Sequence record: MN850651.1
DNA length: 64,000 nt
Reading direction: 5' to 3' (one strand)
Source: Escherichia phage moskry
Below, in pieces: positions 4,338 through 56,692 of the stretch; the stretch's first letter is position 1, and every line of letters starts with the position of its first letter. The position numbers and the translations under genes were made by a program. Under the pieces are notes generated by a model. The model was given only the letters and a program-made list of their open reading frames with translations, was not told the origin of the DNA and did no database searches.

Positions 4338-4376
4338 TTTATTTCTCCAATTTGGGTGTTTTGTTTTGATAGGTCT

Positions 4377-4405
4377 ATACTATCATGTTTGAAGCAAAAG
4401 TAAAC
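4377..4405 (-). promoter_or_regulatory. early sigma70-type promoter for motA (GTTTAC-N17-TAGTAT)
   Basis: Read on - strand: GTTTAC, 17-nt spacer, TAGTAT, then conserved AGACCTATCAA; about 40 nt upstream of the motA ATG. Confidence 0.55.
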
Positions 4406-4424
4406 TGTTTTGTGAGAAAAATGC

Positions 4425-4448
4425 ACAAAAGGGAGCCCGAAGGCTCCC
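4425..4448 (-). terminator. rho-independent terminator hairpin downstream of gene 52
   Basis: GGGAGCC-CGAA-GGCTCCC stem-loop followed on - strand by a UUUUGU run. Confidence 0.6.
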
Positions 4449-4524
4449 TAATCATGTTTGTCCAACCAATACAGCCAAATCACTAGTACAGCTATTGCAC
4501 CGAGAAATCCTAAGGCTAGGGCAC

Positions 4525-5850
4525 TCAAAGTGCCTCCAAGTCTTTAGTGTACTCGGTCACAACATCAGTAGACTTCCAATACTCATTTTCTTCTTTCTTA
4601 GCTTTAGCTTCTTCTGCTAGTTTACGTGCTTCGTCGGAAGTGATATGGAAGATGTTAAGACCTACCAGTTTATCGACATGTTCTTTATACATTTCGATTT
4701 GTGCTAGCTCTTCAGTCAAAGCTTTACGAGTCTTGCCCTGAATCACAATTTCACCTGTAATAACTTTTTTGATGAAGTGTGCCTTAGCAAAAGCAAGTTT
4801 AAATGCTTTTTCAGATTCAAGGATTTTGTTGTCAATACGTTTCTGAACGTAAGTCTTACGGACTTCAACAAAATCTTTGATTAAGTCCACTACGTTATCG
4901 TAGACAGCTAATTTACCCTTTTCATTAATCACTGTGATGTTTTGTGAACGACGTTCGATTAGACTAAAATCTTTCATGATTTTTTCATGACGTAGCTCTT
5001 CGTCATCAGGAAGCGAGTACTCTTTACGGAACTTCACCTTAAACCCAAAGCCGTGTTCACCGCAATCATCTTCCCATGAGATTAGACCTTTGTCTTCCAA
5101 CGGGTCAAGAACCTTACTCACATACGTTTCACGGTCAAATTTATACGGGATTTCAGTTATCTGCATTTGAGTTCGAGATGTGAACTTATATGTCCCGTGA
5201 ATCTCATAACGCCCATCAACTTCATGTACTTCACCACGGAATTCCGGGAATTCAACTTTTGGCTTAGTGACATTTTTACCTTGAAGAGCTTGTAATACGG
5301 CCTTTTTGACTGATTTAAAACTATGAGGCAGAATATTTGTTGCGTAACCGGTTGCAATACCAGAGACGCCATTCAAAAGAACTGTCGGAATAATAGGAAG
5401 ATAGAATTTTGGTGGAATGTGTTCTTTATCTTCATGAGCTGGAGCATATTCAGTATCTTTATATACGTTATAGAAATTTTTACTTACACGAGCAAAAATA
5501 TAACGAGATGCTGCAGCTTTTTGGACTGTTCTAGAACCAAAGTTGCCTTGGCCATCTAACAGTGGATAGTTGTTGTTCCATGTGTTAGCCATCAATGCAC
5601 CTGCATCTTGTGCAGAAGATTCACCGTGGTGATAACCTAAATCTGCAACACCACCTGCAATTGACGCAAGTTTATGAAATTTTTCTTTATTACCACGAGC
5701 CAAATCTAACGCACGATGAACCACAAAACGTTGAACCGGCTTAAATCCATCAATCATGTTTGGGATTGCACGGTTTTCAACGGTGTACATCGCATATGCT
5801 AAGGCTTCGTTATCAATAATACTTTTTAGATTACGAGAATTCAATTGCAT
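4525..5850 (-). CDS. 52: DNA topoisomerase II medium subunit gp52
   Basis: 441 aa; GyrA-like N-terminus (..RAIPNMIDGFKPVQRFVV.., active-site region) matching T4 gp52. Confidence 0.95.
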   Translation of the reverse strand: MQLNSRNLKSIIDNEALAYAMYTVENRAIPNMIDGFKPVQRFVVHRALDLARGNKEKFHKLASIAGGVADLGYHHGESSAQDAGALMANTWNNNYPLLDGQGNFGSRTVQKAAASRYIFARVSKNFYNVYKDTEYAPAHEDKEHIPPKFYLPIIPTVLLNGVSGIATGYATNILPHSFKSVKKAVLQALQGKNVTKPKVEFPEFRGEVHEVDGRYEIHGTYKFTSRTQMQITEIPYKFDRETYVSKVLDPLEDKGLISWEDDCGEHGFGFKVKFRKEYSLPDDEELRHEKIMKDFSLIERRSQNITVINEKGKLAVYDNVVDLIKDFVEVRKTYVQKRIDNKILESEKAFKLAFAKAHFIKKVITGEIVIQGKTRKALTEELAQIEMYKEHVDKLVGLNIFHITSDEARKLAEEAKAKKEENEYWKSTDVVTEYTKDLEAL

Positions 5851-5854
5851 ATTT

Positions 5855-5995
5855 TCACCATATTAATGAACGAATAGCCATTATAACATCTGAAATGAAA
5901 AGCACTACTTGGATTAGTCCAAACATCACACCATAATACAGAACCGTAAGCAACAACAAGAGCCCGAAGGCTCCTGCTAGGATTTTCTTAATCAT
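5855..5995 (-). CDS. tiny hydrophobic protein (46 aa)
   Basis: Not in ORF track (<60 aa). MIKKILAGAFGLLLLLTVLYYGVMFGLIQVV..; start overlaps the stop of the upstream tiny ORF as TAATG; between gene 52 and ndd where T4 has 52.1/ac/stp-type small genes. Confidence 0.35.
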   Translation of the reverse strand: MIKKILAGAFGLLLLLTVLYYGVMFGLIQVVLFISDVIMAIRSLIW

Positions 5996-6141
5996 TACTC
6001 GCCTTTTAACACGTTAATAAGAGCTAAGACCGCTAAGGTGCCTTGTGATACGGCCTGTTGAAATACTGTTGTTTCGCCTGTAACTAAAGTGTTAACGAAT
6101 AAAAACGACCAACACAGCAATGCAATAATCCATGATACCAT
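5995..6141 (-). CDS. tiny hydrophobic protein (48 aa)
   Basis: Not in ORF track. MVSWIIALLCWSFLFVNTLVTGETTVFQQAVSQGTLAVLALINVLKGE; single TM helix. Confidence 0.35.
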   Translation of the reverse strand: MVSWIIALLCWSFLFVNTLVTGETTVFQQAVSQGTLAVLALINVLKGE

Positions 6142-6193
6142 TTTAATTACCTCAAAAATAAATTAAAGGCCCAACTTAATAGGCCCGTATAAA

Positions 6194-6640
6194 TTAGTAA
6201 CTCTGCAGAATGAATTTGAAATTATCTGCCAGAAGACGGTTCATTTCAGTGAGTGTTTGATATTCTGATGTATGGTTGCGAGTGAATGCCAGAGCCAATT
6301 GTCCTTTACCATAACCAGTAGTCAGGGGTTTCATGTTCTTAGCTGCAACAAAGATTACATCATATTCAATATTGTTAGTGCCCATAGTACGGGCTAGTTG
6401 CGAACGGCCTTGACGAATGTGAGAAAGAATTGCATCCAACCCTTGTTTAGAACGTTGACGTCCTACAAAGAATCGTGCTGCTACTTGTCGCCAATCAGAT
6501 GAACCTTTAACAAAGAAGTAAAAACCTTCACGAGAACGAAACTCTTTAGAAACTTCAGAACCGTATTCACCATTACGAACTACTGCAACAACTTCACCGC
6601 CAACTGCCAGAAGGTCTTTACGAGTTAAATATTTGGACAT
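6194..6640 (-). CDS. ndd: nucleoid disruption protein Ndd
   Basis: 148 aa; ..[70 protein letters not shown] matches T4 Ndd from memory. Confidence 0.85.
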
Positions 6641-6684
6641 GCTAATTTCCTCAATTGATTAATGTTTTTGTAATCCATGAGAGC

Positions 6685-6713
6685 ATTATACTCTGCTCTC
6701 AAGAGTTTGTACA
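6685..6713 (-). promoter_or_regulatory. early promoter upstream of ndd (TGTACA-N17-TATAAT) with dyad GAGAGCA/TGCTCTC flanking the -10
   Basis: Read directly on - strand. Confidence 0.5.
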
Positions 6714-6716
6714 ATT

Positions 6717-6917
6717 TTATTCGGCCATATCAGAACGTTCAAAAAGCTCTTCAACAGTTAAACATTCAGTGTCATCTTCAATAAAGAATCGAGTCCAACA
6801 CGTTGGGGCGATACAGTTATGAGTTTGTCCGGCGATAGAAGCTACACGAATAAGCTGCTGACCATTATTCAGAACAAATTTTTCACCAATTTCAACATCT
6901 TTAAAAAGCTTAGCCAT
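6717..6917 (-). CDS. hypothetical protein (66 aa)
   Basis: ORF track; SD GAGGAA before ATG; own promoter upstream. Confidence 0.45.
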   Translation of the reverse strand: MAKLFKDVEIGEKFVLNNGQQLIRVASIAGQTHNCIAPTCWTRFFIEDDTECLTVEELFERSDMAE

Positions 6918-6945
6918 TTTGTGTTCCTCATGTTTCAGTAGGACT

Positions 6946-6975
6946 ACTATACCATAATCCTACCTTGATGTAAAC
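6946..6975 (-). promoter_or_regulatory. early promoter GTTTAC-N18-TATAGT
   Basis: Consensus hexamers plus downstream AGTCCTA box; upstream of the 6717-6917 gene. Confidence 0.5.
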
Positions 6976-7167
6976 AATTAAATTACATTAAAATATGTTA
7001 AAGCCAACCATGTTCCAGTGAACGAACATGCGATGTAAAACCCCGTATCACAAATTGTTCTTAGTACAATAAGAAGTGCATTTTTCATAAGTACCTCAAC
7101 ACAATTGAAAATATTATACAAATCATAGGGATACTAAGCAACCATATTCCGATCCACATTTTAGAGC

Positions 7168-7431
7168 TCATATCTCAACTTCCGTGAGTTCCATATATCC
7201 TTTGTTGATAACCTCTTTAAGATCTTTAGAAAGAATAACACCAAAATGGTCATTCATATGTCCATTAACTAAACGAGTTATTTCGGCTTCAGATGACATA
7301 TAAGGCACGTCTGAGTCCCAATGAGATAGACTTAAATGAGTATAAATCATCCCTTCGTCATCTGCAGTGTTGTACATTGAAACAAATTCGCCTGTTACTT
7401 TATGTTTTGCGTAGAAAAATTTAAATTTCAT
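7168..7431 (-). CDS. hypothetical protein (87 aa)
   Basis: ORF track; SD AAGAGGA before ATG. Confidence 0.5.
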   Translation of the reverse strand: MKFKFFYAKHKVTGEFVSMYNTADDEGMIYTHLSLSHWDSDVPYMSSEAEITRLVNGHMNDHFGVILSKDLKEVINKGYMELTEVEI

Positions 7432-7457
7432 GATGTTATCCTCTTTTAGATAGGACT

Positions 7458-7487
7458 ACTATATCATAGTCCTACTTAGTTGTAAAC
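7458..7487 (-). promoter_or_regulatory. early promoter GTTTAC-N18-TATAGT embedded in dyad TAGGACT/AGTCCTA
   Basis: Read directly; upstream of the 7168-7431 gene. Confidence 0.5.
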
Positions 7488-7499
7488 ACTTTTATGAAA

Positions 7500-7976
7500 T
7501 TAAAGATGAAGATACCACCCGTTGTAGTTGCTCTTGCGGACGATTTTCTTTAGGTCTTCATGGTCTCCCACAAACTTTATAGAATAAGAGAAGACGTCAG
7601 GTGAGGTTTCTTTGACATCTAATATAATAATGCAATCTGCGACTCGATGATTCAAGAAGGGCCCTATATTGATTCCATTACCACCCGGATAATCACCACT
7701 GTATCCTGTGGTAACCGAAATCCATTTAGAATCTATCTGGTGTGTCTTGACTTCTACACGAATTCCACAATACTTGGGATGAGCTAACACGTCCCATGCA
7801 TACGTGTACGGGTCTTCTACGTCTTCAATACCTTTATTAACATATCCATCTAGCCAATTTGCTACTACATACTCTGCAAAGACTGCAACCTTACAACGTC
7901 GAACAACGTCTTCTTTTATTTGACCTGGATCTTGTTTCAACGAGTACCGAGCAGTATCAGCGATCTTAACCTTCAT
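7500..7976 (-). CDS. hypothetical protein (about 158 aa; track ORF extends to 8120)
   Basis: ORF track 7500-8120 overlaps the upstream gene by 128 nt; internal Met (MKVKIADTARYSL) gives a non-overlapping start. Lies at the position where T4 has denB; identity unverified. Confidence 0.4.
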   Translation of the reverse strand: MKVKIADTARYSLKQDPGQIKEDVVRRCKVAVFAEYVVANWLDGYVNKGIEDVEDPYTYAWDVLAHPKYCGIRVEVKTHQIDSKWISVTTGYSGDYPGGNGINIGPFLNHRVADCIIILDVKETSPDVFSYSIKFVGDHEDLKKIVRKSNYNGWYLHL

Positions 7977-7992
7977 TTCGCTAGTCAAAAAC

Positions 7993-8280
7993 TCATTCGA
8001 CAGGATAAATGTCGGAAGACTCTTCAGCCTCAACAGTCCCAAGTTCGTCTTTACCATAGATACCTCTGATGTGTAGTTCACCAAAATAAATGCGGTCACC
8101 TTCTTCAAGATATTCTGCATCTACAGGCGGAATTTCAATAACAACTTCGTCGCATTCTAACCAGCCGTAGTGTGCATCACCAGGATGTTTTACCAATTTA
8201 GCACAATAAACTGATTTACACTTATGATGACCACGAAGATTAGCAATTTTGGATTCTGATACGTCAAATGGATGAATCAT
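7993..8280 (-). CDS. hypothetical protein (95 aa)
   Basis: ORF track; first gene after the rIIB terminator. Confidence 0.4.
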   Translation of the reverse strand: MIHPFDVSESKIANLRGHHKCKSVYCAKLVKHPGDAHYGWLECDEVVIEIPPVDAEYLEEGDRIYFGELHIRGIYGKDELGTVEAEESSDIYPVE

Positions 8281-8295
8281 AATTACCCCTAAAGA

Positions 8296-8315
8296 AAAAG
8301 GGGACCGAAGTCCCC
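8296..8315 (-). terminator. terminator hairpin downstream of rIIB
   Basis: GGGGAC-CGAA-GUCCCC followed on - strand by UUUUUCUUU. Confidence 0.6.
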
Positions 8316-8320
8316 AATTA

Positions 8321-9268
8321 TTATTCTGTAAATAATTCAGTAACGTCTGAAATTACTTCATAACGACAAGTACGCATCTTAGCATCGCCATAGTCAACCG
8401 GGATGGATACAACATCACGTGGATGAACTTTAACCTTAACAACTTTATCTGAGCTAGAACCAAAGTAACGAATATATGATTTAGCACAAACATGTAGACC
8501 ACGGGAGCAGGTTTGAGTATCATCATCGTTAACACGAGTACGAGGCATTGAAACAACTTTACCTGGCGAGTTATCAAATGTGCCACTATAGCAATCTAAA
8601 TAGTCTTTACGAACTACTTTCCACGCATAGAAATGCCCATCTTCAGTGATTTCAATATCGTTTGCAACCAAGAAGTCGAATAAACGTTGTACAGCTTTTT
8701 CGCTTGGGTTTTCTAACAGGTTTTCAAGGAACGGCAGATAGAATTTAAAGTCTTCGCCTTTTTCCATAGAATCAATAATACGATTAACCAGTCCTGAACG
8801 AATTTCTATACCTTGATAAAATAAACTACCACCTTCAATAGTAACATTACCGTCAACAAACTTAGTAATAGCTTTCTTGATGTTAATAAGTTCGACAGCT
8901 TTACTAAGGTTTCCTGCGACCAGATTAGCTTTAATTTCTTCAAAATTTGCATGACTTGATGGGGTCGCATTGTATGCTACGCGTCCTTCAATGATTGAAA
9001 TAAATTTAGATGACGCGTTCCATACGATTTCTGGACGATGACCTGTAATAATAGGTTCATTATTTTCTGGAACTTCTTCGATTACATAAGAGGCATCGTT
9101 TGCTTCAGGGACAACGCCTTCTGCTTTAAAATTCTTAACAATCTTACGAAGAGTATCTGTTGAAATGTCGAAGTAATCGGCAATTTCTTTACGAGTCCAT
9201 TTGCCTGATTTGACCAGGCCGTAAGCTTCTAACTGTTCTTCTTGGGACAAGCATTTGATATTGTACAT
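8321..9268 (-). CDS. rIIB: rIIB protein
   Basis: 315 aa; MYNIKCL.., ..RVNDDDTQTCSRGLHVC.KSYIR.FGSSS.KVVKVKVHPRDVVSIP.. match T4 rIIB from memory. Confidence 0.95.
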   Translation of the reverse strand: MYNIKCLSQEEQLEAYGLVKSGKWTRKEIADYFDISTDTLRKIVKNFKAEGVVPEANDASYVIEEVPENNEPIITGHRPEIVWNASSKFISIIEGRVAYNATPSSHANFEEIKANLVAGNLSKAVELINIKKAITKFVDGNVTIEGGSLFYQGIEIRSGLVNRIIDSMEKGEDFKFYLPFLENLLENPSEKAVQRLFDFLVANDIEITEDGHFYAWKVVRKDYLDCYSGTFDNSPGKVVSMPRTRVNDDDTQTCSRGLHVCAKSYIRYFGSSSDKVVKVKVHPRDVVSIPVDYGDAKMRTCRYEVISDVTELFTE

Positions 9269-11796: not shown

Positions 11797-12897
11797 TTAC
11801 GCTGTGAAGATTTTATCCCACATCGCAACAACTGCATCTCGATTATACTTCTTCCATACTGCTTCAGCACGTTTAACTCGAGCTTCGTATGTGTCAGTGA
11901 ATTCTAATACAGCTTTTGTGTAAAGCGCAACTACTTCTTTCTTAGGAGTAGAGGAATCAATTTCTACACGCACAGTATCTGGGTCGTATTCGAATGTCGC
12001 ATGAGGATAATCCTTAAAAACTAACTGGATTACAGGGACACCTTTAGAGATGGCTTCAATAGAACTATTCTCTACCGTACCTGTGTCAGGACACGTATTA
12101 ATAAGTGCTTTAGCTGTTTTAAGACATTCCATAATTTCACTGTGTGGAGCATCAATAATAACAGGATATTTAGCTGGTGGTGCCCATTTGCTTGGACAAT
12201 AACCAATACCATTTTCGCCTAGTGCTTTAATCGCTTCAAGAGCAACATCAGTACGACGCATTTTAGTGTCATAACGTTGTGCACTAATAATCAGATCAGT
12301 CGCCGGAAGAACTTCAGGTTTCTCATTCAAACAAATAACCGGATAATCTTCGGCTTCAAACAACGGATTTGCTCGCCAATAATCATAATCGATTTTGTCA
12401 GTCAGACCTGAAGTCATATAACAATATTTGCGTTCAAATTCACGGAAGGCTTTAGTAGGAGCATAACTCTTACCGCCATTCTTATGAATTTGAATAGTTT
12501 GGTCCCAAATTTGAACAATGCCACGAGATACCGGTTCAAATGGTGTTGCCATAAAATTCTTGTGAACTTTAGAGAGACCTGCGTCTTTAATTGCCTGAAC
12601 GGTTAGTTTAGTCGGTTCCATAGTAACAACAAAATCGTATTCATGGATGCCGGCTAGTTCAACAATCTTACGAGCCATAGTATAACTCATACCTAGACTG
12701 AATTTAGTCAGATGACCAACAGGATGGTGTGTAACTTTCCAGTCACCAAACGTGTCGTTATCAAAGCCGATATAATCAATATCAGCACCGATGGACACAA
12801 GATATTTCAACACGTTCAAATGAACCGCTTCAAGACCACCTTGTACACGTTCTGGGTTAAATGGGACTGCGCGAGATGGGATAAACATAACTTTCAT
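11797..12897 (-). CDS. putative glycosyltransferase (GT-B-like), candidate DNA sugar transferase
   Basis: 366 aa; C-terminal ..ENSSIEAISKGVPVIQL.. resembles the E-x-G-x-PV(I/V) region of GT-B transferases; sits between rIIA.1 and gene 39 where T4 has gene 60/mobA. Fold assignment is inference only. Confidence 0.45.
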   Translation of the reverse strand: MKVMFIPSRAVPFNPERVQGGLEAVHLNVLKYLVSIGADIDYIGFDNDTFGDWKVTHHPVGHLTKFSLGMSYTMARKIVELAGIHEYDFVVTMEPTKLTVQAIKDAGLSKVHKNFMATPFEPVSRGIVQIWDQTIQIHKNGGKSYAPTKAFREFERKYCYMTSGLTDKIDYDYWRANPLFEAEDYPVICLNEKPEVLPATDLIISAQRYDTKMRRTDVALEAIKALGENGIGYCPSKWAPPAKYPVIIDAPHSEIMECLKTAKALINTCPDTGTVENSSIEAISKGVPVIQLVFKDYPHATFEYDPDTVRVEIDSSTPKKEVVALYTKAVLEFTDTYEARVKRAEAVWKKYNRDAVVAMWDKIFTA

Positions 12898-24879: not shown

Positions 24880-25401
24880 TTAGTAACCTCGGTCTTGGCG
24901 AGCGAAGTTTTCAGCATTCTTCAGGTAATACAGTTTAAAGATTTCTTCAGCGGAAAGACCCAGACCTTGGAACATATTCAGAACAAAGTGGAGGATATCA
25001 ATCATCTCGAATTTAATTTCAAGCTGGTCTTCAGGAGACAGTTCATCGATACGACGATTTCGATATTCAGCGTGTTGTGCCTTCCACGGCTTCCATACAC
25101 TGCTGGCGGCTTTTTCACCGTTGCTCATACCACCAAGTGAAGTCAGCAGTTCACGAAATTCATCATCAATATAATCTTTCTGATTACGCAGCCAATCAAC
25201 AACATCACCAGCAGTGGCCAATTCATCAGGATGTTTGTTATGTTCAGGCTTGTCATTTGCCAGACGAACCTGTAAAGATTTCTGCATATCAAGCATTACC
25301 TGCAGTGGGTCTTTATCTTCGTGAATCAGAGCATTAAAATAAGCTTCTTCTGCTTTATCAACACCAGAAATAAGTTGTGAACATTCGTTAAAGTGTGCCA
25401 T
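24880..25401 (-). CDS. 56: dCTP pyrophosphatase (dCTPase/dUTPase) gp56
   Basis: 173 aa from MAHFNECSQLISGVDKAEE..; ..DPLQVMLDMQ..LQVRLAN.., ..LEIKFEMIDILHFVLNMF.GLG.. match T4 gp56 from memory. Confidence 0.9.
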   Translation of the reverse strand: MAHFNECSQLISGVDKAEEAYFNALIHEDKDPLQVMLDMQKSLQVRLANDKPEHNKHPDELATAGDVVDWLRNQKDYIDDEFRELLTSLGGMSNGEKAASSVWKPWKAQHAEYRNRRIDELSPEDQLEIKFEMIDILHFVLNMFQGLGLSAEEIFKLYYLKNAENFARQDRGY

Positions 25402-25489
25402 TATTTTTCCTTTCAATTCAGTATAAGAGAGTTAATTCTAACATTAATTTTATAAAGCGTAATAAATAATAGGTAACTAAGGAGATATT

Positions 25490-33481: not shown

Positions 33482-34030
33482 TTAACGAGCCCATTTAATG
33501 ATTTCTGTAATCAAATAATTACGTTCGCTTGCATTAAATCCTATAACTTTGTTAGCACCATCATGATTAAGTAATTGATACGTTTGGATTTTGTTATGAA
33601 TTGCAAACTCTTCAAAATATGAAATGACTGTATTAAAACCGAATGAAGACAAAGTAATAAGGTCGTCTTCAAAACTTTCAGTCATTTCGTTACGTGTTAA
33701 AATAATTGTGAACACATCATGGTTTTGGCAAAGACGAACATAATCCTGTTCATAAACATCAAGAACCGAGTCCGCATCTTGTCGAATACGTCCATAAACC
33801 CAGTTACTAATATATCCACGGTCTAACAGATAAATCTTAGTAGGGTCTAAATAATTCAACATCGTTTCGAAACAGCCGACTTCATTTCGAGACTTAACAT
33901 CGAAACGCCCATCAACTGTTCGTTTAGGGAAATCAATCTTTACATATCTTTCACTAATTTCCATTATGTCATTAATGAAAGTTGTTTTACCAGCATTATC
34001 CGGCCCGTCTACTAAAATAATTTTAGCCAT
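33482..34030 (-). CDS. P-loop kinase (nucleotide- or sugar-kinase-like), function unknown
   Basis: 182 aa; Walker A ..ILVDGPDNAGKTTF.. near the N-terminus, ..YLLDRGY.. downstream; not present at this position in T4. Confidence 0.5.
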   Translation of the reverse strand: MAKIILVDGPDNAGKTTFINDIMEISERYVKIDFPKRTVDGRFDVKSRNEVGCFETMLNYLDPTKIYLLDRGYISNWVYGRIRQDADSVLDVYEQDYVRLCQNHDVFTIILTRNEMTESFEDDLITLSSFGFNTVISYFEEFAIHNKIQTYQLLNHDGANKVIGFNASERNYLITEIIKWAR

Positions 34031-34031
34031 T

Positions 34032-34931
34032 TTATTCCTCGATTACGACATCTTCGTATTTAGGTATATTATACGGTGAAGAAATTAAAGCATTAAAGTA
34101 GATGAACTCACCAAGACCTGGATGGAATACTTCTTCAGGATTTTCGAAATATTGAATCTTCGGACGTCCTTTAAGAATTTGATAGTACTCAGTTTTAGTT
34201 GGATTAAAAATTCGAATCAGCGCTTCTTCAGGATACTTATTTCTGTCGAAGCTATTATTTGGATCGGTTATATAAAGCGGTTGACCTAATTGAATTGCGC
34301 ATTCAACCACTTGTTCAAAACGATAACACGGGTCACTAATTCGAAATGGATGAAAAATACCATCTAGATGAATAGGAGCCAAATCACCTACAAGACGCTG
34401 CATGATGGAAGGACGTATAACTTTCTGAGTTACGATAATCTTATTACCATCTGCACCTGCGTTAACCAGCACTTCTTTTTGACGTTCATTCAACACAGTA
34501 GTTTGAAGTGAACTATTAACTGACAACATATCGGTTTTTAAGAATTCGTCAATATAAAAACGTGGTTTATTAGGGTCTGCCGTGATATTGAAATTGAATT
34601 CTACATCAAAAGCGCCGTCATAACCAGTGATATCTGTTATTAGAAAATCACAATCATAATAAGCAATTAATGAATCAACCACAAATTCATTTTCAGACCA
34701 GAAATATTTACGAGTGTTATACGCGTTATCTTTATACCATAATGGAACAAACTTAAATTCCGGGAAAAGACGTTCACATTCTTTAATATCAGATGCATTA
34801 CGTGGATATGTAATCACATCACCTGGATTAGCACGGTGCAAATGAAGTTGGAAGTTGCCATCCTTAAGGATAGCATACTGTCCAGTTTCATAAGACCGCA
34901 TACTCAAAATAGGTACGCGGAAAATAGCCAT
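34032..34931 (-). CDS. hypothetical protein (299 aa) occupying the T4 beta-glucosyltransferase position
   Basis: ORF track; stop/start coupled to the kinase and hydroxymethylase genes; no motif I can assign with confidence. Confidence 0.5.
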   Translation of the reverse strand: MAIFRVPILSMRSYETGQYAILKDGNFQLHLHRANPGDVITYPRNASDIKECERLFPEFKFVPLWYKDNAYNTRKYFWSENEFVVDSLIAYYDCDFLITDITGYDGAFDVEFNFNITADPNKPRFYIDEFLKTDMLSVNSSLQTTVLNERQKEVLVNAGADGNKIIVTQKVIRPSIMQRLVGDLAPIHLDGIFHPFRISDPCYRFEQVVECAIQLGQPLYITDPNNSFDRNKYPEEALIRIFNPTKTEYYQILKGRPKIQYFENPEEVFHPGLGEFIYFNALISSPYNIPKYEDVVIEE

Positions 34932-35647
34932 TAGTCAAGAAATCCTTTAACATAATCAAAATCACGTTCAAACACATGGGCACTTACCATGGTATGAGTA
35001 TAATCACCAACTTCTACACCACATTCGTTAGCGATATAATGAAGTAATTTTCCTTGGAGATAAAAATCCAACTGCATAACAACAGCACAGTTCTGAGAAC
35101 GCATATGACAGTGGGTATAAAGCTTACCATCACGAATATAATAAGTCACTGAGTCAGTACATGGATATTCAAGTGTTTCGTCCGAATCAAGCAAAGCCTG
35201 ATCAGAACTTTCTAGAATTTGGAACACAACTCTTCGAGAGTTAGGTTTCTCTTTAAGTTCTTTTAGAAGAGCCGGTAATTGGGCCGCAATGCGAGGACCG
35301 TAGAAAGTGTTGAAGTTTGCAGGCAAAGCGTCTGATTTAGGTTTAGAAATAAATTTAGCGACATTAGGATATGCCTTAAACGCTTCTTCTGCATCAGTAC
35401 CACCAGAAATCATAAACTTCCAGAAGTCTTCGGCATATTCATAAGAGATGCGGTTAATACGTGGGTCGGTCATTTTGAATGATGATGGATTGTCAACAAC
35501 TACTGTCATGGACCCGATTTCATTACAACGTCCAATACGAGAATTAGTTACGAATTCGGGGTTTTCTAAAATTTCACGATTGACTGCTTTAAATGCGGTT
35601 TGAAAATCTGCGGCTTTGATATATTTCATTGTGTTATGTTTTCCCAT
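34931..35647 (-). CDS. 42: thymidylate-synthase-fold dNMP hydroxymethylase (gene-42-like, probably dCMP-specific)
   Basis: 238 aa; ..LEYPCTDSVTYYIRDGKLYTHCHMRSQNCAVVMQLDFY.. aligns with the TS/dCMP-HMase catalytic Cys segment (P-C..Y.(I/V)RD(G/K)K..(Q/N)..RS.D) with Asp at the base-specificity position. Confidence 0.65.
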   Translation of the reverse strand: MGKHNTMKYIKAADFQTAFKAVNREILENPEFVTNSRIGRCNEIGSMTVVVDNPSSFKMTDPRINRISYEYAEDFWKFMISGGTDAEEAFKAYPNVAKFISKPKSDALPANFNTFYGPRIAAQLPALLKELKEKPNSRRVVFQILESSDQALLDSDETLEYPCTDSVTYYIRDGKLYTHCHMRSQNCAVVMQLDFYLQGKLLHYIANECGVEVGDYTHTMVSAHVFERDFDYVKGFLD

Positions 35648-35689
35648 GTTTACCTCAATACAATTTATTATATACTCAATTCGTAAAGC

Positions 35690-35929
35690 TTATTTGAATT
35701 TCTTAGCAATGTTGATATAACGTAAAGCTTCAGAATCTATACTTCCAAGAACACTATGAAGGAATGCATCAGCGTAGTATTCTAGTTGAACAGGTTCTTT
35801 AATCGCTTTAGCCGCTTTAGTTTCAAACAGGCCCATAAGGGCCTTTTTAAGAATTTGTTCGTTGCTATTAATTTTTATGGTCAAAATCTCTTCATTAAGT
35901 TGGTGGTTAAAAGTTTTTCTAGAAATCAT
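35690..35929 (-). CDS. hypothetical protein (79 aa)
   Basis: ORF track; overlaps the upstream gene by 4 nt. Confidence 0.4.
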   Translation of the reverse strand: MISRKTFNHQLNEEILTIKINSNEQILKKALMGLFETKAAKAIKEPVQLEYYADAFLHSVLGSIDSEALRYINIAKKFK

Positions 35930-37104
35930 TCCGGGTACCTCAAAGCGTCGTCAGAGTTAGTTATATCAATAATAGATATAGAATTTTCTGATAACCCATT
36001 TTTAGATAACTGGCGTTTATAATATCTTTCACAATATGTACACGTCGTCCCGCAGATTTCATTAGCACAATCGAAATCTGGATGTCTGAACCACCTTTTT
36101 TCTAAAAAGCCGTCTAACAAAGAGGTTTCAATATTTACCGTATGTGAAAACTCGGTCTCATTTTCAAGAGTGAAAATGGTCTCTAAAGGCTTCCACAATT
36201 CCAACAAATTACCTTCAAACTTTTCAGAAGCATAAGCTTCAAGAACTTTCAAAATGTAGTCGGTGCTACCTGTACGTCCCGAAACTTTAAATTGAGTGAT
36301 ACCAATATCGTTATAAAGTTTCAAATCTTGGGGACGAACAAAACGAGTTCTCAACCAGTTAAATGGGTCTGTATCACGAGCTTTAATACAGTGCTGCATA
36401 GGATATCCGTTTAAGGATTTAGCATCATCAGCCGTAACATCAGTACTATGGAAAATATAGCAAGAGTCACGATAGCTACAATGTGTTGTATACCCTTTAC
36501 CAGCATTAGAACAGAACTCATTTACAAGAACTTCAAATATTATATTGTTCTTATTGCAAAACTCTGCTGCACGCTTCAGGAAAGAAACTGAACGGTTCTT
36601 ATGAATTCCACAGCAGACCTTTTTGATATTATATTGGTCATGCAAGTATTTGATTTGAGTTACAGCATCGACATGTAGAATTGTTGAAACTTCAATCTCA
36701 ATGTCTTTATTGACTTCACGAACAATTTCCATAACAACAGGGTTAGCGATAGTAATACGCCATACGCCTATTGACCAAAGATACTGAACATAATCCTGAA
36801 TAGCTTTCTTCTTCCACTCAACTAGTTCTCTTTTTGAACCAGGATTTATCGTGTTGAGTGTATAGTTAAAGCAAATACCTAATTCGTTACAACGTTTAAC
36901 GTAGTCTTCTAACATCTTTTTGTCAACGTCAGGAAGCCTAAAATCAGGTCTGGCTGCTACAAAAGCCATTTCTCTTGTAGAGCCGTATACTTCGTTTATC
37001 AAGCTATTAGGATAAGTTTTATTGAGCTCTACGATTTTATCAAGAAGAGCTAAATCAAAATTCGTTCCGATTTTAAAAGTATTCATTTTTTTTTTGCATC
37101 TCAC
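35926..37104 (-). CDS. Cys-rich protein of unknown function (392 aa); candidate metal-dependent enzyme/transferase
   Basis: ORF track; Cys clusters (..EFCSNAGKGYTTHCSYRDSCY.. and C-terminal ..CANEICGTTCTYC..); part of the sugar module. Confidence 0.5.
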   Translation of the reverse strand: MRCKKKMNTFKIGTNFDLALLDKIVELNKTYPNSLINEVYGSTREMAFVAARPDFRLPDVDKKMLEDYVKRCNELGICFNYTLNTINPGSKRELVEWKKKAIQDYVQYLWSIGVWRITIANPVVMEIVREVNKDIEIEVSTILHVDAVTQIKYLHDQYNIKKVCCGIHKNRSVSFLKRAAEFCNKNNIIFEVLVNEFCSNAGKGYTTHCSYRDSCYIFHSTDVTADDAKSLNGYPMQHCIKARDTDPFNWLRTRFVRPQDLKLYNDIGITQFKVSGRTGSTDYILKVLEAYASEKFEGNLLELWKPLETIFTLENETEFSHTVNIETSLLDGFLEKRWFRHPDFDCANEICGTTCTYCERYYKRQLSKNGLSENSISIIDITNSDDALRYPE

Positions 37105-37145
37105 GTTAATTGATGCGATGGTTTTTGCAGGTCTTACTTAAATTA

Positions 37146-37547
37146 TTATAGATTAGGTTTATATGATTTAAATGTTTCGAATTCGCCTTTATTCATAAGA
37201 GCTTTGAATTCGTCAGGACGCATAGCTTTGTCGTCGATAATCCAATCATATACTGGTTTATGTGTTAGCAAATTATGGTACTTCAAGCCAATGTTTGCTA
37301 AGTTCTGAATCAGACTTGGGAGAATGTCAATTGCTATACGACCAGGACCTACTGACTTCATACCGCGAGCAGTGTAAAGCGTTATGGTATGCCCTGCATC
37401 ATACAGGGCATTAATGGCAGACACCATTTCGACGTCTGGTTTGAAGTTCACGTAATCACGATTGTTATTCCACTCTGTTATACAATCATCGACATCAAAA
37501 CAAAGATTAAGCATGTTTTCTACACGGTGCATTAGATTCGTTCCCAT
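37146..37547 (-). CDS. HAD-superfamily phosphatase (small, cap-less)
   Basis: 133 aa; motif I ..LCFDVDDCIT.., motif II ..TLYTARG.., motif IV ..WIIDDK.. Confidence 0.55.
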   Translation of the reverse strand: MGTNLMHRVENMLNLCFDVDDCITEWNNNRDYVNFKPDVEMVSAINALYDAGHTITLYTARGMKSVGPGRIAIDILPSLIQNLANIGLKYHNLLTHKPVYDWIIDDKAMRPDEFKALMNKGEFETFKSYKPNL

Positions 37548-39217
37548 TGATGAGTGATATCGCCACCAATTGGGCGATAAGAAACACCAGTTTCTTTATC
37601 AGTTAGTACCCATTTACCAGGATTTTTTGTAATCAGAGTAGCCGTTACAGGTTCTGCTACGTCATAACTAATAGAGCCGTCTTGAAGTACACGGCCCATG
37701 TTACGTAATTGCTTAGTCAGAAGTTCCATACCTTTATAATATGCAGCTACCGCTTTAAGTGGATTATTCTTGAAATAACCACCTAATGCAATCCAGATAA
37801 TTGCCACTGCCAAATGATGATACTCGTTAAACGAACTCATCTTTCCATATTTGTAAACTAATGGATTGATGTTAATAGTCACATTACAAGTTGTTTCATC
37901 AATAGTAAACTGTCCCCAGGTCGGATTAGCGTTGAATTCATCATAACCTGAAACAGCATAAAGCACTTTAGCTTCATCGTACAATTTTGGCCCGTAAATC
38001 TTGGTTTCCCCAAAATATCCACGAGGGTCGATAAACTTGACTTCGCCGTTATCAGTAATCATAGTATTACTGAAGTTCGGGTCACCATGAATAACAGAGT
38101 ACTGTCCCTGAGAACGGTTATGATAACGAATAAGGTGTTCTAAAGCTTGTTTCAGCATTGGCTTCAGACGCCCAATCTTAGTGTAGTTCACATGGGTGAT
38201 TTTACCAAATGAATCAATCAATGGTTGAATGCTTTCACAACGATCAATAACTTTCGTATAGAATTCTTTAGTGAAATCACGGCGAACAGTTTCAGGACTT
38301 ACAAAATAAGTGTCTGTGCTGAATTTCAGTGCATCTAAAATTGCATCAACAATTTGTGGACGAGCAAGACTTGATTTGGATTTAATATATTCAAATGCCG
38401 GCTTACCTTTAATGCGTTCCATTTCAAAGTTATTTTCATTAACAGAAACTAACTGAGGAACTGAATCTGATTTCACTTTAAGATACCATGAAATCTCATC
38501 TTTCTGAAGAGCTCGACCCTGTTCGGTTAATGCGAATTTAGTTACAGTTTCTTCACCAATTTCAACTGCATTAAAACTACGATTAAGTTCACGAACTTCA
38601 TGAGCTTTTTCAAGTTTAGGCATATCACCTAAATCAATTAGATTCATAAGCTCTGATTTATTGAATGCGCTGCCGTAAAGGAATTCTACGAAATCGCGTC
38701 CTTTGCAGTATTCATGAATTTCCTCATCGGTAGAACCCATATAGAATTCCCAGTCTTTGAACTGATAAATTCCTACAACATTACCACCTGTTGAACCTAC
38801 GTTAGTGATATTTTCACCGTCGAAATTATATCGACATTCGTCACCCTTAACATAGATTGCGTTAACATTCCAAGACCATGAACCAAAATCGGGAATAATA
38901 TCACACCAGTTAACAATTACATTATGGCCGTCTAAATCTTTGTGTAATTTAGCAAGAGCATAAGCAGAACCGTACGCTTCATCAACTGTACGAATAGTCA
39001 CATTGAACCCTTCTTGCTCACAATAAGCTCGAACAGTTTCAGCAAATTTTGAATGAACTACTACAATAATTTCATCTGCGCCAAGGTCAGAATAAATTGT
39101 ATACAAATTGCTCAGAATAGTGTCTTGTTTATAGTTAACAAGCACCTTAGGAATATGATGCGTTATTGGATATAAACGAGTCGCCAGTCCAGCACCAAGA
39201 ATAACAGCTTTTTTCAT
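37532..39217 (-). CDS. bifunctional sugar-1-phosphate nucleotidyltransferase (N) / APH-choline-kinase-like anomeric sugar kinase (C)
   Basis: 561 aa; N-terminus MKKAVILGAGLATRLYPITHHIPKVLV (G-x-G-x-R-L-x-P-x-T..PK-x-L nucleotidyltransferase signature); C-terminal ..VIHGDPNFSNTMIT..VKFIDPRGYFG.. (H-G-D-x-x-x-N and I-D-x-x kinase motifs). Confidence 0.7.
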   Translation of the reverse strand: MKKAVILGAGLATRLYPITHHIPKVLVNYKQDTILSNLYTIYSDLGADEIIVVVHSKFAETVRAYCEQEGFNVTIRTVDEAYGSAYALAKLHKDLDGHNVIVNWCDIIPDFGSWSWNVNAIYVKGDECRYNFDGENITNVGSTGGNVVGIYQFKDWEFYMGSTDEEIHEYCKGRDFVEFLYGSAFNKSELMNLIDLGDMPKLEKAHEVRELNRSFNAVEIGEETVTKFALTEQGRALQKDEISWYLKVKSDSVPQLVSVNENNFEMERIKGKPAFEYIKSKSSLARPQIVDAILDALKFSTDTYFVSPETVRRDFTKEFYTKVIDRCESIQPLIDSFGKITHVNYTKIGRLKPMLKQALEHLIRYHNRSQGQYSVIHGDPNFSNTMITDNGEVKFIDPRGYFGETKIYGPKLYDEAKVLYAVSGYDEFNANPTWGQFTIDETTCNVTININPLVYKYGKMSSFNEYHHLAVAIIWIALGGYFKNNPLKAVAAYYKGMELLTKQLRNMGRVLQDGSISYDVAEPVTATLITKNPGKWVLTDKETGVSYRPIGGDITHQWERI

Positions 39218-39245
39218 GTTGAAGTCCTCATTGGTAAGTAGGAGT

Positions 39246-39270
39246 ATTGTACACTATTCTAGTTAAAGCA
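39246..39270 (-). promoter_or_regulatory. candidate MotA-dependent middle promoter (MotA box TGCTTTA, 12 nt, -10 TACAAT) upstream of the nucleotidyltransferase/kinase gene
   Basis: Read on - strand: GAATGCTTTAAC..TACAAT about 30 nt upstream of the ATG. Confidence 0.4.
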
Positions 39271-39398
39271 TTCATACTTTGCTTGTAGTCCAATCATAAT
39301 CCATCCAATTACAAGTGTTGGAATCATTACTGGAGCCGTTAAGCTCCAGTAGATAGTCATGACAAGCATCAATAGTAAAAGTCCTATTGTTATTGCTT

Positions 39399-40034
39399 TC
39401 ATTGTTCGCCTCGTAACATGGCACCTAGTGCACCGCCTGGATGGAACTTAAGGAAGTCATTAGAGGTAAATCCACGCTCAGACGAAAGGTTGATAGCGAA
39501 CGTATCGATAAGCGCTAACAACAATGTAGTGGACATAGTCGGAGCTAAAGAGTTCTCGTCAACTTCTACCGCGATACCGGTACAGAACGTATAATCAAAA
39601 AGAGCTTCGTATTCTTGTGGAATGTCAGGGTTACAATGCAACAGAATCTGTTTGACGTTCGGGCGAATCATTTTAAGATGCTTAGCCACGCCTATCATTT
39701 CTTCAGTTTTACCAGAACGACTAATATGAATCAACACATCATTAGGCGCAATGAATCCTGCATCACCGTGAGAATAATGCCCAGTGTTCAAGTACATACT
39801 AGGGATACCGAGTGAAGCAAATGTCTCAGAAGCTTTAGTTGCAATATTAGCATTCTTACCAACACCTGTAATAATTACTCGGCTTTCATAATTACTAAGT
39901 CCCGGGCGTCGAAGAGTTTCTAGAATAGCATTATAACGAGCAGGGTTTTGACTAATTACTTTGGCCATAGCGGCCAAAGAAGAAGCTTGTTTTATGATTG
40001 CGTCAATAGCGATAGTAATAGGAGTAGTTTTCAT
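39399..40034 (-). CDS. SIS-domain sugar-phosphate isomerase (arabinose-5-phosphate isomerase-like, no CBS domains)
   Basis: 211 aa; ..ITGVGKNANIATKASETFASLGIPS.., ..HISRSGKTEE.. typical SIS (KpsF/GutQ/KdsD-type) motifs. Confidence 0.65.
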   Translation of the reverse strand: MKTTPITIAIDAIIKQASSLAAMAKVISQNPARYNAILETLRRPGLSNYESRVIITGVGKNANIATKASETFASLGIPSMYLNTGHYSHGDAGFIAPNDVLIHISRSGKTEEMIGVAKHLKMIRPNVKQILLHCNPDIPQEYEALFDYTFCTGIAVEVDENSLAPTMSTTLLLALIDTFAINLSSERGFTSNDFLKFHPGGALGAMLRGEQ

Positions 40035-54407: not shown

Positions 54408-54878
54408 TTAATCATGTTTCCACACCCCATCTGTATTTGACCAAAGTCGCTGATTATCTGATCCTCGCCACAGCTTTTTAGTCGGAAGATTTTTCTCATA
54501 CTTCCCATCAATAATAACATCAACATATTTAAGCATTTCTAGTTGTTTAATATCTTCAAACTTATATCCTGTCCACAACCAAATGCTTTTATTAGGATAA
54601 AGATTTTTTACTGTTTGAGCAATGCGATGAATAACATCTCGGTTATCAGGATAGAGAGGGTCTCCTCCTGTTATAGTTAATCCTTCTATATAATCATTAT
54701 TCAAACATTCAATTAATTGTTCTAGTGTCTCTCCAGTGAATGGAGCACCATTTCTAGCGTTCCATGTTGATTTATTATAACACCCTTCACATTTATGCAA
54801 ACAACCTGTAACGAAAAGAACGACCCTACAACCAGGGCCATTCACAAAATCGCAAGGATAAAATCTATCATAATTCAT
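54408..54878 (-). CDS. nrdG: anaerobic ribonucleotide reductase activating protein NrdG (radical SAM)
   Basis: 156 aa; CxxxCxxC (..GCLHKCEGCYN..), ..GLTITGGDP..; overlaps the nrdD stop. Confidence 0.9.
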   Translation of the reverse strand: MNYDRFYPCDFVNGPGCRVVLFVTGCLHKCEGCYNKSTWNARNGAPFTGETLEQLIECLNNDYIEGLTITGGDPLYPDNRDVIHRIAQTVKNLYPNKSIWLWTGYKFEDIKQLEMLKYVDVIIDGKYEKNLPTKKLWRGSDNQRLWSNTDGVWKHD

Positions 54879-56692
54879 TGGTGTTTAACCCTATGCATGA
54901 TTTCTTTATTTTTGCCTAGATTAAATCCGCGTTCGTTCGGGTTTCCAAGATAACCGCATGTTCTTCTTATAGTGTTCATCTTTTTAGGATCAGTTTCTCC
55001 GCAAACTGAACAAACAAATCCATTTTCGGTAGGAGTCATTTCATGAGTACTTCCACATGTAAAACATTTATCTACTGGCATATTAACACCAAAATAATCT
55101 AAATGTTGTGCAGCATAATCCCAGACAGCCTCAAGTCCCTTTAAATTGTTTTTCATATCTGGAAGTTCAACATAAGAAATGTGACCACCTGTCGCAATGA
55201 AATGATATGGCGCTTCACGAGAAATCTTTTCAAACGGAGTAATATTTTCTTCTACTGAAACATGGAAACTATTAGTGTACCAGCCTTTATCAGTGACATC
55301 CTTTACACTTCCATATTTTTCTGTATCAAGTTTACAGAAGCGATAACAAAGGTTTTCAGCAGGAGTGGAATATAAACTAAAAGCAAATCCGGTTCTTTCA
55401 GTCCACTGTTTAAGATGAGCATTCATTTTAGTTAAAATTTCTTGTCCAATATCACGACCGACAAGAATATTCAATTCGTGAATACCAATGTATCCTAGGG
55501 ACACTGAACTTCTACCGTTTTTAAATAACTCAATTATATCGTCATCAGGTTTAAGACGAACCCCGAATGCACCTTCTTGGTAAAGAATAGGAGCAACAGT
55601 CGCTTTAACTCCTTTTAAGGAACTAATTCTACACATCAAAGCTTCAAAACACAGGTCCATTCGTTCATTGAACAATTCGGCAAATTTCTGTTCATTGAAT
55701 TGTGTTCCAATATAAGAATCTAACGCAATACGAGGAAGATTCAGTGTTACAACGCCAAGATTATTGCGTCCATCAAGAATTTCATTGCCAGTTGAATCTT
55801 TCCATACGCTCAAGAAACTACGGCAGCCCATTGGAGAAACAGGAACTGAAGAACCGGTAATAGCTTTATTATTCTTAACCGAAATAATATCAGGATACAT
55901 TCTTTTGCTTGCGCACTCTAGAGCAAGCTGCTTAATATCATAGTTCGGATCATCTTTATAAAGATTAACACCTTCTTCAACAAACATAACAAGCTTAGGG
56001 AAAATAGGAGTTATTCCATCACGACCAAGACCTTTAATGCGGTTTTTAAGAATTGCTTTCTGAATCATTCGTTCAGTCCAGTCGGTTCCTGTACCAAATG
56101 TAATTGTTACAAAAGGAGTCTGTCCGTTTGAACTAAAGAGAGTATTTACTTCATATTCATAAGCTTGGAATGCATCGTATACGTCTTTTTCTGTTTTAGA
56201 TTGAGCATAATTCAACGCATCAGCGATTTGCCATTTTTCTGCATCTTCAACATGTTTAGCGTATGTGCGTTTAACATAAGGAGAAAGAACTTTATCGACA
56301 TTCGCAAATGTAGTTCCGCCATATTGGTGTGAAGCAACTTGTGCGGTAATTTGTGCCATAATTGCAGTAGCAACGCCAATAGATTTAGGCGTTTCAATTT
56401 GAGCATTGCCTAATTTAAATCCATTCTCAAGCATCCCCTTTAAATCGACTAAACAGCAATTGGTAAACGGAAGAGCAGGAGAATAATCAATATCATGCAT
56501 GTGAATGATTCCGCTTTCATGCGCATGCATAATAAAAGACGGGACCATATTTTTGGCAATGTGCTTAGACACAATACCAGCCATAAGGTCCCGTTGAGTT
56601 GGAAAAACACGAGAATCTTTATTAGCATTCTCGTTCAAAAGATCTTTATTAGTTTTATAAATTAATCCTTCAATTTCTTTTTCAATTTTCAT
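54875..56692 (-). CDS. nrdD: anaerobic ribonucleotide reductase large subunit NrdD (class III), intronless
   Basis: 605 aa uninterrupted; C-terminal Zn ribbon (CFTCGS..CSVCG) and glycyl-radical motif ..RRTCGYLG.. Confidence 0.95.
   Translation of the reverse strand: MKIEKEIEGLIYKTNKDLLNENANKDSRVFPTQRDLMAGIVSKHIAKNMVPSFIMHAHESGIIHMHDIDYSPALPFTNCCLVDLKGMLENGFKLGNAQIETPKSIGVATAIMAQITAQVASHQYGGTTFANVDKVLSPYVKRTYAKHVEDAEKWQIADALNYAQSKTEKDVYDAFQAYEYEVNTLFSSNGQTPFVTITFGTGTDWTERMIQKAILKNRIKGLGRDGITPIFPKLVMFVEEGVNLYKDDPNYDIKQLALECASKRMYPDIISVKNNKAITGSSVPVSPMGCRSFLSVWKDSTGNEILDGRNNLGVVTLNLPRIALDSYIGTQFNEQKFAELFNERMDLCFEALMCRISSLKGVKATVAPILYQEGAFGVRLKPDDDIIELFKNGRSSVSLGYIGIHELNILVGRDIGQEILTKMNAHLKQWTERTGFAFSLYSTPAENLCYRFCKLDTEKYGSVKDVTDKGWYTNSFHVSVEENITPFEKISREAPYHFIATGGHISYVELPDMKNNLKGLEAVWDYAAQHLDYFGVNMPVDKCFTCGSTHEMTPTENGFVCSVCGETDPKKMNTIRRTCGYLGNPNERGFNLGKNKEIMHRVKHQ

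Follow-up and report, generated by a model that had tools for sequence, protein, structure and literature searches.

An orthologue of the RB69 gp48 deoxycytidylate hydroxylase in Escherichia phage moskry

Between uvsX and the DNA polymerase gene (gene 43), phage T4 carries beta-gt and gene 42. In the same interval, Escherichia phage moskry carries a 238-aa open reading frame (ORF) on the minus strand (34931..35647), within the 64,000-nucleotide stretch of sequence record MN850651.1 that was analysed here as a whole (the window). The question raised by this locus is which modified nucleotide its product makes, given that the protein has the fold of a thymidylate synthase and the map position of a hydroxymethylase. 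The source is a Mosigvirus, in other words an RB69-like T-even coliphage, and the 5 kb surrounding the gene are 97.7–98.4% identical to RB69 and to more than 150 other Mosigvirus genomes. The original prediction, which had flagged exactly this ORF, took it for a divergent hydroxymethylase of thymidylate synthase fold and cytosine specificity, with the caution that its substrate or product needed confirmation and should not be taken for granted. That caution was justified: the fold and the cytosine specificity are right, and the product differs. With very high confidence, the gene encodes a deoxycytidine monophosphate (dCMP) C5-hydroxylase, i.e. a 5-hydroxy-dCMP (5hodCMP) synthase, which is the orthologue of RB69 gp48 and HY126 AfhB. 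The basis of this assignment is split, in that the orthology, residue signature, fold and gene context come from the present analysis, and the substrate, product, O2 and flavin from the literature on the orthologues.

Orthologues, fold and product

The ORF is preceded by a GAGG Shine–Dalgarno sequence (35653..35656, minus strand, as read from the sequence), which lies 5 nt upstream of the ATG (35647-35645). Its protein matches Pfam PF00303 (Thymidylat_synt; E = 2.3e-15, 56.9 bits, cutoff 24.3) and PHROG 160, 'thymidylate synthase' (E = 5e-47), and a sequence search of the PDB returns 9iqc/9ir2 and 9iqu (E = 1e-160), such that the predicted relationship to the thymidylate synthases stands far above chance. 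An AlphaFold2 model with 50 homologues as input (mean predicted local distance difference test score, pLDDT, of 86.5) superposes on 9iqc with template-modelling (TM) scores of 0.94/0.96, and over 9iqc/9iqu with scores of 0.94–0.97; the fold is thus as originally predicted. The next-best folds after these entries are the cytidine monophosphate (CMP) hydroxymethylase MilA (TM 0.81), followed by thymidylate synthases. The entries themselves, both released on 2025-07-16, bear the titles 'Monooxygenase dependent on riboflavin with dCMP and FAD' and 'phage HY126 dCMP hydroxylase-AfhB with substrate dCMP'.

At the level of identity, the window protein agrees with RB69 gp48 (RB69ORF048c, NP_861738; equal length) at 236 of 238 positions, with bas46_0142 of phage Bas46 at the same number, and with HY126 AfhB (the 9iqc sequence) at 233 of 238, none of the five differences falling in the motifs described below; an identical protein is present in phage ECO111 5-P. 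By its fold, its identity, Asn186, its set of Cys, Glu and Asp residues and its gene context, the window gene belongs to the gp48/AfhB clade. The enzyme is therefore one that is already known, with structures from July 2025 and papers from 2025–2026, and the gene in the window is a copy of it at 99% identity. Its homologues are spread over 345 phage records, 57 of them of Acinetobacter phages, and many of these GenBank records still name the gene 'thymidylate synthase' or 'dCMP hydroxymethylase', labels which now call for correction. A second thymidylate-synthase-fold gene was not found in the 64-kb window by tblastn with T4 gp42 and E. coli ThyA as queries, and this result led to the rejection of the idea that the phage has a normal gp42 of which the gene is an additional paralogue.

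The activity has been established with the RB69 orthologue. Lee et al. (Nucleic Acids Res 2026; PMC13326640) report that RB69 gp48 turns dCMP into 5-hydroxy-dCMP, and that upon its expression together with the phage deoxynucleoside monophosphate (dNMP) kinase, which phosphorylates 5hodCMP to the diphosphate, 5-hydroxydeoxycytidine (5hodC) is found in E. coli DNA. The nucleoside product has a mass of 243 Da and elutes together with authentic 5hodC; when 18O2 is supplied its mass is 245 Da, which places the origin of the oxygen in O2. Under identical assay conditions, T4 gp42 yields 5-hydroxymethyldeoxycytidine (5hmdC), at a different retention time. The RB69 protein, once purified, has a yellow colour and absorbs maximally at 370 and 455 nm; the cofactor released from it is loosely bound and behaves as flavin mononucleotide (FMN) or a related flavin (PMC13326640). 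The flavin-containing crystal structure of the HY126 enzyme and its reconstitution in vitro are, as relayed in PMC13326640, credited to He et al. 2026 (Nat Chem Biol). In RB69 virion DNA, moreover, the cytosines are mono- and poly-arabinosylated, the sugar being joined by an ether link straight to C5 via the oxygen of 5-hydroxycytosine, and the modification replaces all C (PMC13326640). The term 'hydroxymethylase' in the original prediction consequently does not stand, since an orthologue identical at 236 of 238 positions yields 5hodC rather than 5hmdC, with its oxygen drawn from O2.

The active site, its proposed chemistry and the alternatives

The residues were compared in an alignment of the window protein with E. 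coli ThyA (for which the reference sequence is identical to the PDB wild-type thymidylate synthase), T4 gp42 (from NC_000866) and 120 homologues from the databases, the most distant of them 53% identical. All four motifs quoted in the original prediction (PC, YxRDGKL, RSxN and MQLDFY) are found in the protein, at P162-C163, Y170-I-R-D-G-K-L176, R183-S-Q-N186 and M191-Q-L-D194-F-Y196, respectively. The expected nucleophile is Cys163 (codon 35159..35161, minus strand, aca on the plus strand), the counterpart of ThyA C146 and gp42 C148, which is retained in every one of the 120 homologues. Likewise, the expected Asp at the base-specificity position is Asp194 (35066..35068, minus strand, plus-strand atc), where ThyA has N177 and gp42 D179; it is Asp in 120/120 and Asn in none, a pattern that fits dCMP as the substrate. 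A further acidic residue, Glu160 (35168..35170, minus strand), lies at the active-site entrance, at the position of ThyA L143 and gp42 D145, and is also invariant (120/120); this L143E change is remarked on by Lee et al. 2026 (PMC13326640). The codons of E160, C163, N186 and D194 were confirmed on the raw sequence.

The residue that sets the clade apart is Asn186 (35090..35092, minus strand, plus-strand gtt). The corresponding position is Asp in ThyA (D169), in the S. aureus thymidylate synthase and in T4 gp42 (D171), and Asn in all 120 homologues. The family form of the motif is accordingly RSxD, as seen in the RSCD of E. coli ThyA and the RSND of T4 gp42, and the RSQN of the window protein is a departure from it. 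In this regard the original prediction, which had listed RSxN among the family motifs, needs amending: RSxN is not canonical and, given the Asp of ThyA and gp42 and the Asn of every homologue, is instead the mark of the hydroxylase clade. Lee et al. 2026 put forward Asn at the ThyA D169 position as diagnostic of 5hodCMP synthases, and nine further homologues with the D169N change all made 5hodC (PMC13326640). In other words, across the 120 homologues a single residue, Asn186 of RSQN, separates the hydroxylases from the hydroxymethylases.

Elsewhere in the protein the nucleotide site is conserved and the folate site is not. The nucleotide-binding residues R138/R139, R183, S184 and H224 are invariant in the homologue alignment. 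At the folate contacts, ThyA W80 is replaced by Ala (A97; 112 of 120 homologues), G173 by Val (V190; 120/120) and F176 by Leu (120/120), the alignment of the W80 region being less certain than that of the 169–177 segment; T4 gp42 keeps Trp and Gly at the first two of these positions (W82, G175). The end of the window protein aligns to residue 221 of the 264 of ThyA, such that the 43 C-terminal residues (222–264) are absent. ThyA Y209, which hydrogen-bonds the nucleotide 3'-OH and is Tyr in T4 gp42 too, corresponds to Phe226 (codon 34970-34972), and Phe stands at this position in the window protein and 105 of the 120 homologues.

A reaction sequence can be proposed on this scaffold, its step order, flavin hydroperoxide and supply of reduced flavin being extrapolated from the chemistry of thymidylate synthase and flavin monooxygenases. 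The substrate dCMP would sit in the conserved nucleotide pocket (R138/R139, R183, S184, H224), with Asp194 reading the N3/N4 edge of the cytosine. Cys163 would then add to C6 of the pyrimidine, as in the thymidylate synthase family, rendering C5 nucleophilic. In thymidylate synthase, C5 attacks the methylene of methylenetetrahydrofolate (CH2-tetrahydrofolate); here it would instead take up an O2-derived oxygen by way of a reduced flavin at the folate site, presumably as the flavin C4a-hydroperoxide, after which elimination of Cys163 would free 5-hydroxy-dCMP. In terms of enzyme class, what this amounts to is the scaffold of a folate-dependent one-carbon transferase turned into a flavin- and O2-dependent monooxygenase.

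There are several points that weigh against this picture. The product data come from orthologues and not from this exact sequence, which differs from RB69 gp48 in N35/D and N53/T, both outside the catalytic motifs. The chemical steps and the position of the flavin are putative, read from the PDB titles and the summary of Lee et al. The flavin itself is given differently by the two sources, as loosely bound FMN in PMC13326640 vs flavin adenine dinucleotide (FAD)/riboflavin in the crystal title, and any naming of the physiological flavin or its reductant is provisional.

Among the alternatives is a folate-dependent dCMP hydroxymethylase like T4 gp42, on which reading C5 would receive the methylene group from CH2-tetrahydrofolate and hydration of that group would yield 5-hydroxymethyl-dCMP. 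It has in its favour the genome position in the uvsX/gene 43 interval, that of T4 gene 42, together with the catalytic Cys, the Asp at N177 and the acidic residue at L143, all of which are common to T4 gp42. The label 'dCMP hydroxymethylase' also appears in the records of Bas46, JK42, PhiKpNIH-6 and others, and RB69 DNA was first described as carrying arabosyl-hydroxymethylcytosine (hmC) (PMC6024577). That assignment has since been called erroneous in an independent paper (PMC13390438), and the 18O2 labelling and the 5hodC product of RB69 gp48, where T4 gp42 makes 5hmdC (PMC13326640), speak directly against a one-carbon transfer, as do crystal structures that contain flavin and no folate. With respect to membership of the gp42 clade, C163 and D194 do correspond to gp42 Cys148 and Asp179, but the equivalents of D171, W82 and G175 are N186, A97 and V190, each of them present in at least 112 of the 120 homologues; the Asp of ThyA D169 and gp42 D171 is thus Asn in 120/120, and the counterpart of gp42's W80-position Trp is Ala. 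The original prediction had remarked that the protein looks unlike T4 gp42 outside the catalytic segment, and this is so, with BLASTP identity of just 24% over 218 aa. Bit scores are 50 to gp42, 57 to E. coli ThyA and 48–50 to the S. aureus thymidylate synthase and MilA, and the T4 enzyme (dCMP hydroxymethylase, dCH) does not appear in the first 60 PDB matches of the window protein. Overall, hydroxymethylation is highly improbable.

To a similarly slight degree, the protein could be a hydroxylase of differing substrate or scope, acting for instance also on CMP or deoxyuridine monophosphate (dUMP), or on DNA rather than on the mononucleotide. The Phe that replaces the 3'-OH-contacting Y209 of ThyA, in the window protein as in 105/120 homologues, would fit this reading, and the closest non-orthologous structures are those of the CMP-specific MilA. 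Yet the crystal structures hold dCMP, Asp194 speaks against uracil, and the action of the dNMP kinase on 5hodCMP, together with the replacement of all virion C, fits a route through the nucleotide pool (PMC13326640).

An ordinary thymidylate synthase, converting dUMP to deoxythymidine monophosphate (dTMP), can be set aside as scarcely credible, for although the Pfam Thymidylat_synt and PHROG 'thymidylate synthase' matches and the name given to it by many phage records and by the PDB molecule field point that way, the protein falls below all NCBIfam equivalog cutoffs (best 69.3 vs 174.55 bits, the rest ≤50 vs 108–427), has Asp rather than Asn at the uracil-specificity position and Asn rather than Asp at 169, lacks the folate-closing C-terminal segment of ThyA, and has an orthologue whose measured product is 5hodCMP (PMC13326640).

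The arabinosylation cluster and the question of oxygen

Taking the gene as a dCMP hydroxylase, the fate of its product can be followed through the rest of the window, in which the genes of the arabinosyl-5-hydroxycytosine pathway are complete (the cluster at 33482-40034, together with 11797-12897 and 24880-25401; all minus strand). The 5-hydroxy-dCMP would be raised to the triphosphate by a phage dNMP kinase of the T4 gp1 type, encoded outside the window, and by host nucleoside diphosphate (NDP) kinase, while the pool of deoxycytidine triphosphate (dCTP) would be depleted by the dCTPase/dCDPase (gp56 orthologue, 24880..25401; 97.7% to bas46_0125, dUTPase_2), which removes dCTP and supplies dCMP (PMC13326640 Table 1). 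The phage DNA polymerase would then build 5-hydroxycytosine into DNA, and two arabinosyltransferases would place one or two arabinofuranoses on the 5-OH. The first of these, DNA arabinosyltransferase 1 (RB69 gp46:47 orthologue, 299 aa, 34032..34931; 99% to bas46_0141 of Bas46, PHROG 3891), has a role predicted by structural similarity, its counterparts in phage DLP3 having been assayed in vitro (PMC13326640 Table 1). The second (RB69 gp3 orthologue, 11797..12897; 98.6% to bas46_0103) lies in the rIIA/topoisomerase interval (PMC13326640, PMC13390438). The resulting decorated DNA would be resistant to restriction enzymes; the hydroxylase is, in this regard, the entry to a family of 5-hydroxycytosines bearing sugars, which protect phage DNA against restriction enzymes and CRISPR-Cas.

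The sugar donor, UDP-arabinofuranose, would come from the neighbouring isomerase, kinase/uridylyltransferase and phosphatase genes. These are, respectively, an arabinose-5-phosphate isomerase (RB69 gp55 orthologue, 39399..40034; Pfam SIS, E = 1.7e-10; PMC13326640 Table 1), a bifunctional nucleotidyltransferase/sugar kinase of 561 aa (RB69 gp52:53/HY126 AfhE, 37532..39217; NTP_transferase, E = 8.5e-10, with weak kinase matches), which serves the synthesis of UDP-arabinofuranose (PMC13326640), and a HAD-type phosphatase (RB69 gp51/HY126 AfhF orthologue, 37146..37547; PHROG 1238, 100% to Bas46), for which the role summarised in PMC13326640 is the conversion of arabinose-1,5-bisphosphate to arabinofuranose-1-phosphate (Araf-1-P). 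The cluster is completed by a thymidylate-kinase-like nucleotide kinase of unproven role (RB69 gp45 orthologue, 33482..34030; PHROG 761, E = 6e-45; PMC13326640 Table 1), a small conserved protein (RB69 gp49 orthologue, 35690..35929; PHROG 8601) and a peptidase-U32-family protein (RB69 gp50 orthologue, 35926..37104, annotated start 37086; PF01136, E = 7.7e-11; PHROG 5757). The ORFs at 34032-34931 and 37532-39217 are intact in the window and split in the RB69 record (ORF046c/047c and ORF052c/053c), in agreement with the published view that the RB69 splits are sequencing errors. The hydroxylase stop overlaps the ATG of arabinosyltransferase 1 in a TAATG at 34929-34933 (minus strand), an overlap which suggests that the two genes may be translationally coupled.

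Compact versions of the cluster are present in Dhakavirus QL01 (3878-8589) and Acinetobacter phage Maestro (4253-11480, both in the numbering of the stretches compared), with a sugar-activating gene, a phosphatase, a kinase-like gene, the hydroxylase and one or more transferases, and with the U32 and gp49 genes absent. The kinase-like gene of QL01 precedes the hydroxylase gene instead of following the transferase gene.

With respect to transcription, a T4-type middle-promoter-like site (MotA box GCTTTA, 11 nt, TATAAT; 35667..35689, minus strand) stands ahead of the hydroxylase gene, just past the stop of the upstream gene. For the pattern GCTTYA, 10–13 nt, TANAAT, the window has 15 matches where 0.87 are expected, and the coding strand carries 12 of the 15; further such sites at 34068-34091, 39246-39269 and 25435-25458 (minus strand, pattern only) mean that the hydroxylase, kinase-like, bifunctional sugar-activating and dCTPase genes each have one directly upstream. 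Their function as middle promoters is putative, being read from the pattern; MotA is encoded at 3708-4337. A sigma-70 promoter scan of the window gave no enrichment (23 vs 26 expected), and the middle-promoter pattern was preferred to it.

The U32-family protein, gp50, whose gene lies two ORFs upstream of the hydroxylase, is labelled 'sugar or heterocycle reductase' in PMC13326640 from fold matches only. It has homologues in 221 phage records, and the ten names most frequent in these include no Acinetobacter; in Shewanella phage Thanatos-2 its identity is 82% vs 72% for the hydroxylase, gp50 being the better conserved of the two across genera. It and gp49 are missing from the equivalent clusters of Maestro and of the E. 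coli Dhakavirus QL01. Cysteines are found at 192/203/209/233 and in a C-terminal C340-x4-C-x3-C-x2-C352. A PDB sequence match was not found for gp50, BLASTP against E. coli UbiU and RlhA was not significant (E 0.05–0.08), and in a MAFFT alignment with the E. coli U32 proteins the cysteine motifs were not convincingly aligned and the Cx6Cx15Cx3C spacing was not seen.

The host of the phage is a gut facultative anaerobe. The window also contains an anaerobic ribonucleotide reductase (nrdD/nrdG, 54411-56692, minus strand), and since NrdD/NrdG are encoded, the phage is equipped for anoxic infection. Despite this, the one route by which it is known to obtain its replacement for cytosine runs through an O2-dependent monooxygenase. 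Those cellular U32 proteins that have been characterised, all in E. coli here, hydroxylate without O2, and two act at pyrimidine C5: RlhA forms 5-hydroxycytidine (ho5C) in rRNA and TrhP 5-hydroxyuridine (ho5U) in tRNA, whereas UbiU/UbiV belong to the anaerobic formation of ubiquinone, and each of the three parallels an O2-dependent hydroxylase. Given these analogues, the presence of nrdD/nrdG and the O2 dependence of the hydroxylase, it is conceivable that gp50 provides, in the manner of RlhA, TrhP and UbiU/UbiV, an O2-independent route to 5-hydroxycytosine. Such a role is nevertheless unlikely: QL01, a phage of E. coli, is also without gp50, the likeness to the E. coli U32 proteins appears only at the level of the profile (PF01136, E = 7.7e-11), and the cysteine spacing of those proteins is not seen. 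In favour of such a role, gp50 is dispensable for the aerobic pathway, because it is absent from the clusters of the Acinetobacter phages DLP3 and Maestro, and it is better conserved than the hydroxylase.

Comparison with known systems

The nearest known systems are RB69 gp48 and HY126 AfhB (9iqc, 9ir2, 9iqu), which share with the window protein its length, its Cys/Glu/Asn/Asp signature, its gene neighbourhood and the genus Mosigvirus. RB69 gp48 differs by two conservative substitutions of surface type (N35 for D, N53 for T), and nothing functional separates the two.

T4 gp42 (PDB 1b5e family) resembles the window protein in its fold, its dCMP substrate, its catalytic Cys, the Asp at N177, the acidic L143 position and a shortened C-terminus, as well as in its map position and its role, which is to supply a modified dCMP that replaces dCMP. 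It differs in its chemistry, since gp42 attaches CH2OH with the help of CH2-tetrahydrofolate and water, whereas the phage moskry enzyme attaches OH by means of a flavin and O2; gp42 also has D171, W82 and G175 in place of N186, A97 and V190, at an overall identity of 24%.

MilA (PDB 5jnh, 5b6d), from mildiomycin biosynthesis, provides the closest structure outside the orthologues (Foldseek E = 2.5e-18, TM 0.81, 24% identity). Like the phage enzyme it is specific for cytosine, with Asp at both the N177 and the L143 positions (PMC13326640); unlike it, MilA is folate dependent, acts on a ribonucleotide (CMP), is some 80 residues longer and belongs to the secondary metabolism of Streptomyces.

E. 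coli ThyA (PDB 2tsc/1aob), finally, has in common with the window protein the fold, the phosphate-binding arginines (R126/R127 and R166), Ser167, His207 and covalent catalysis by Cys146. The two are set apart by the changes N177 to Asp, D169 to Asn, L143 to Glu, W80 to Ala, G173 to Val and F176 to Leu, by the loss of ThyA residues 222–264 from the phage protein, and by their chemistry, which is one-carbon transfer in ThyA and oxygen transfer in the hydroxylase.

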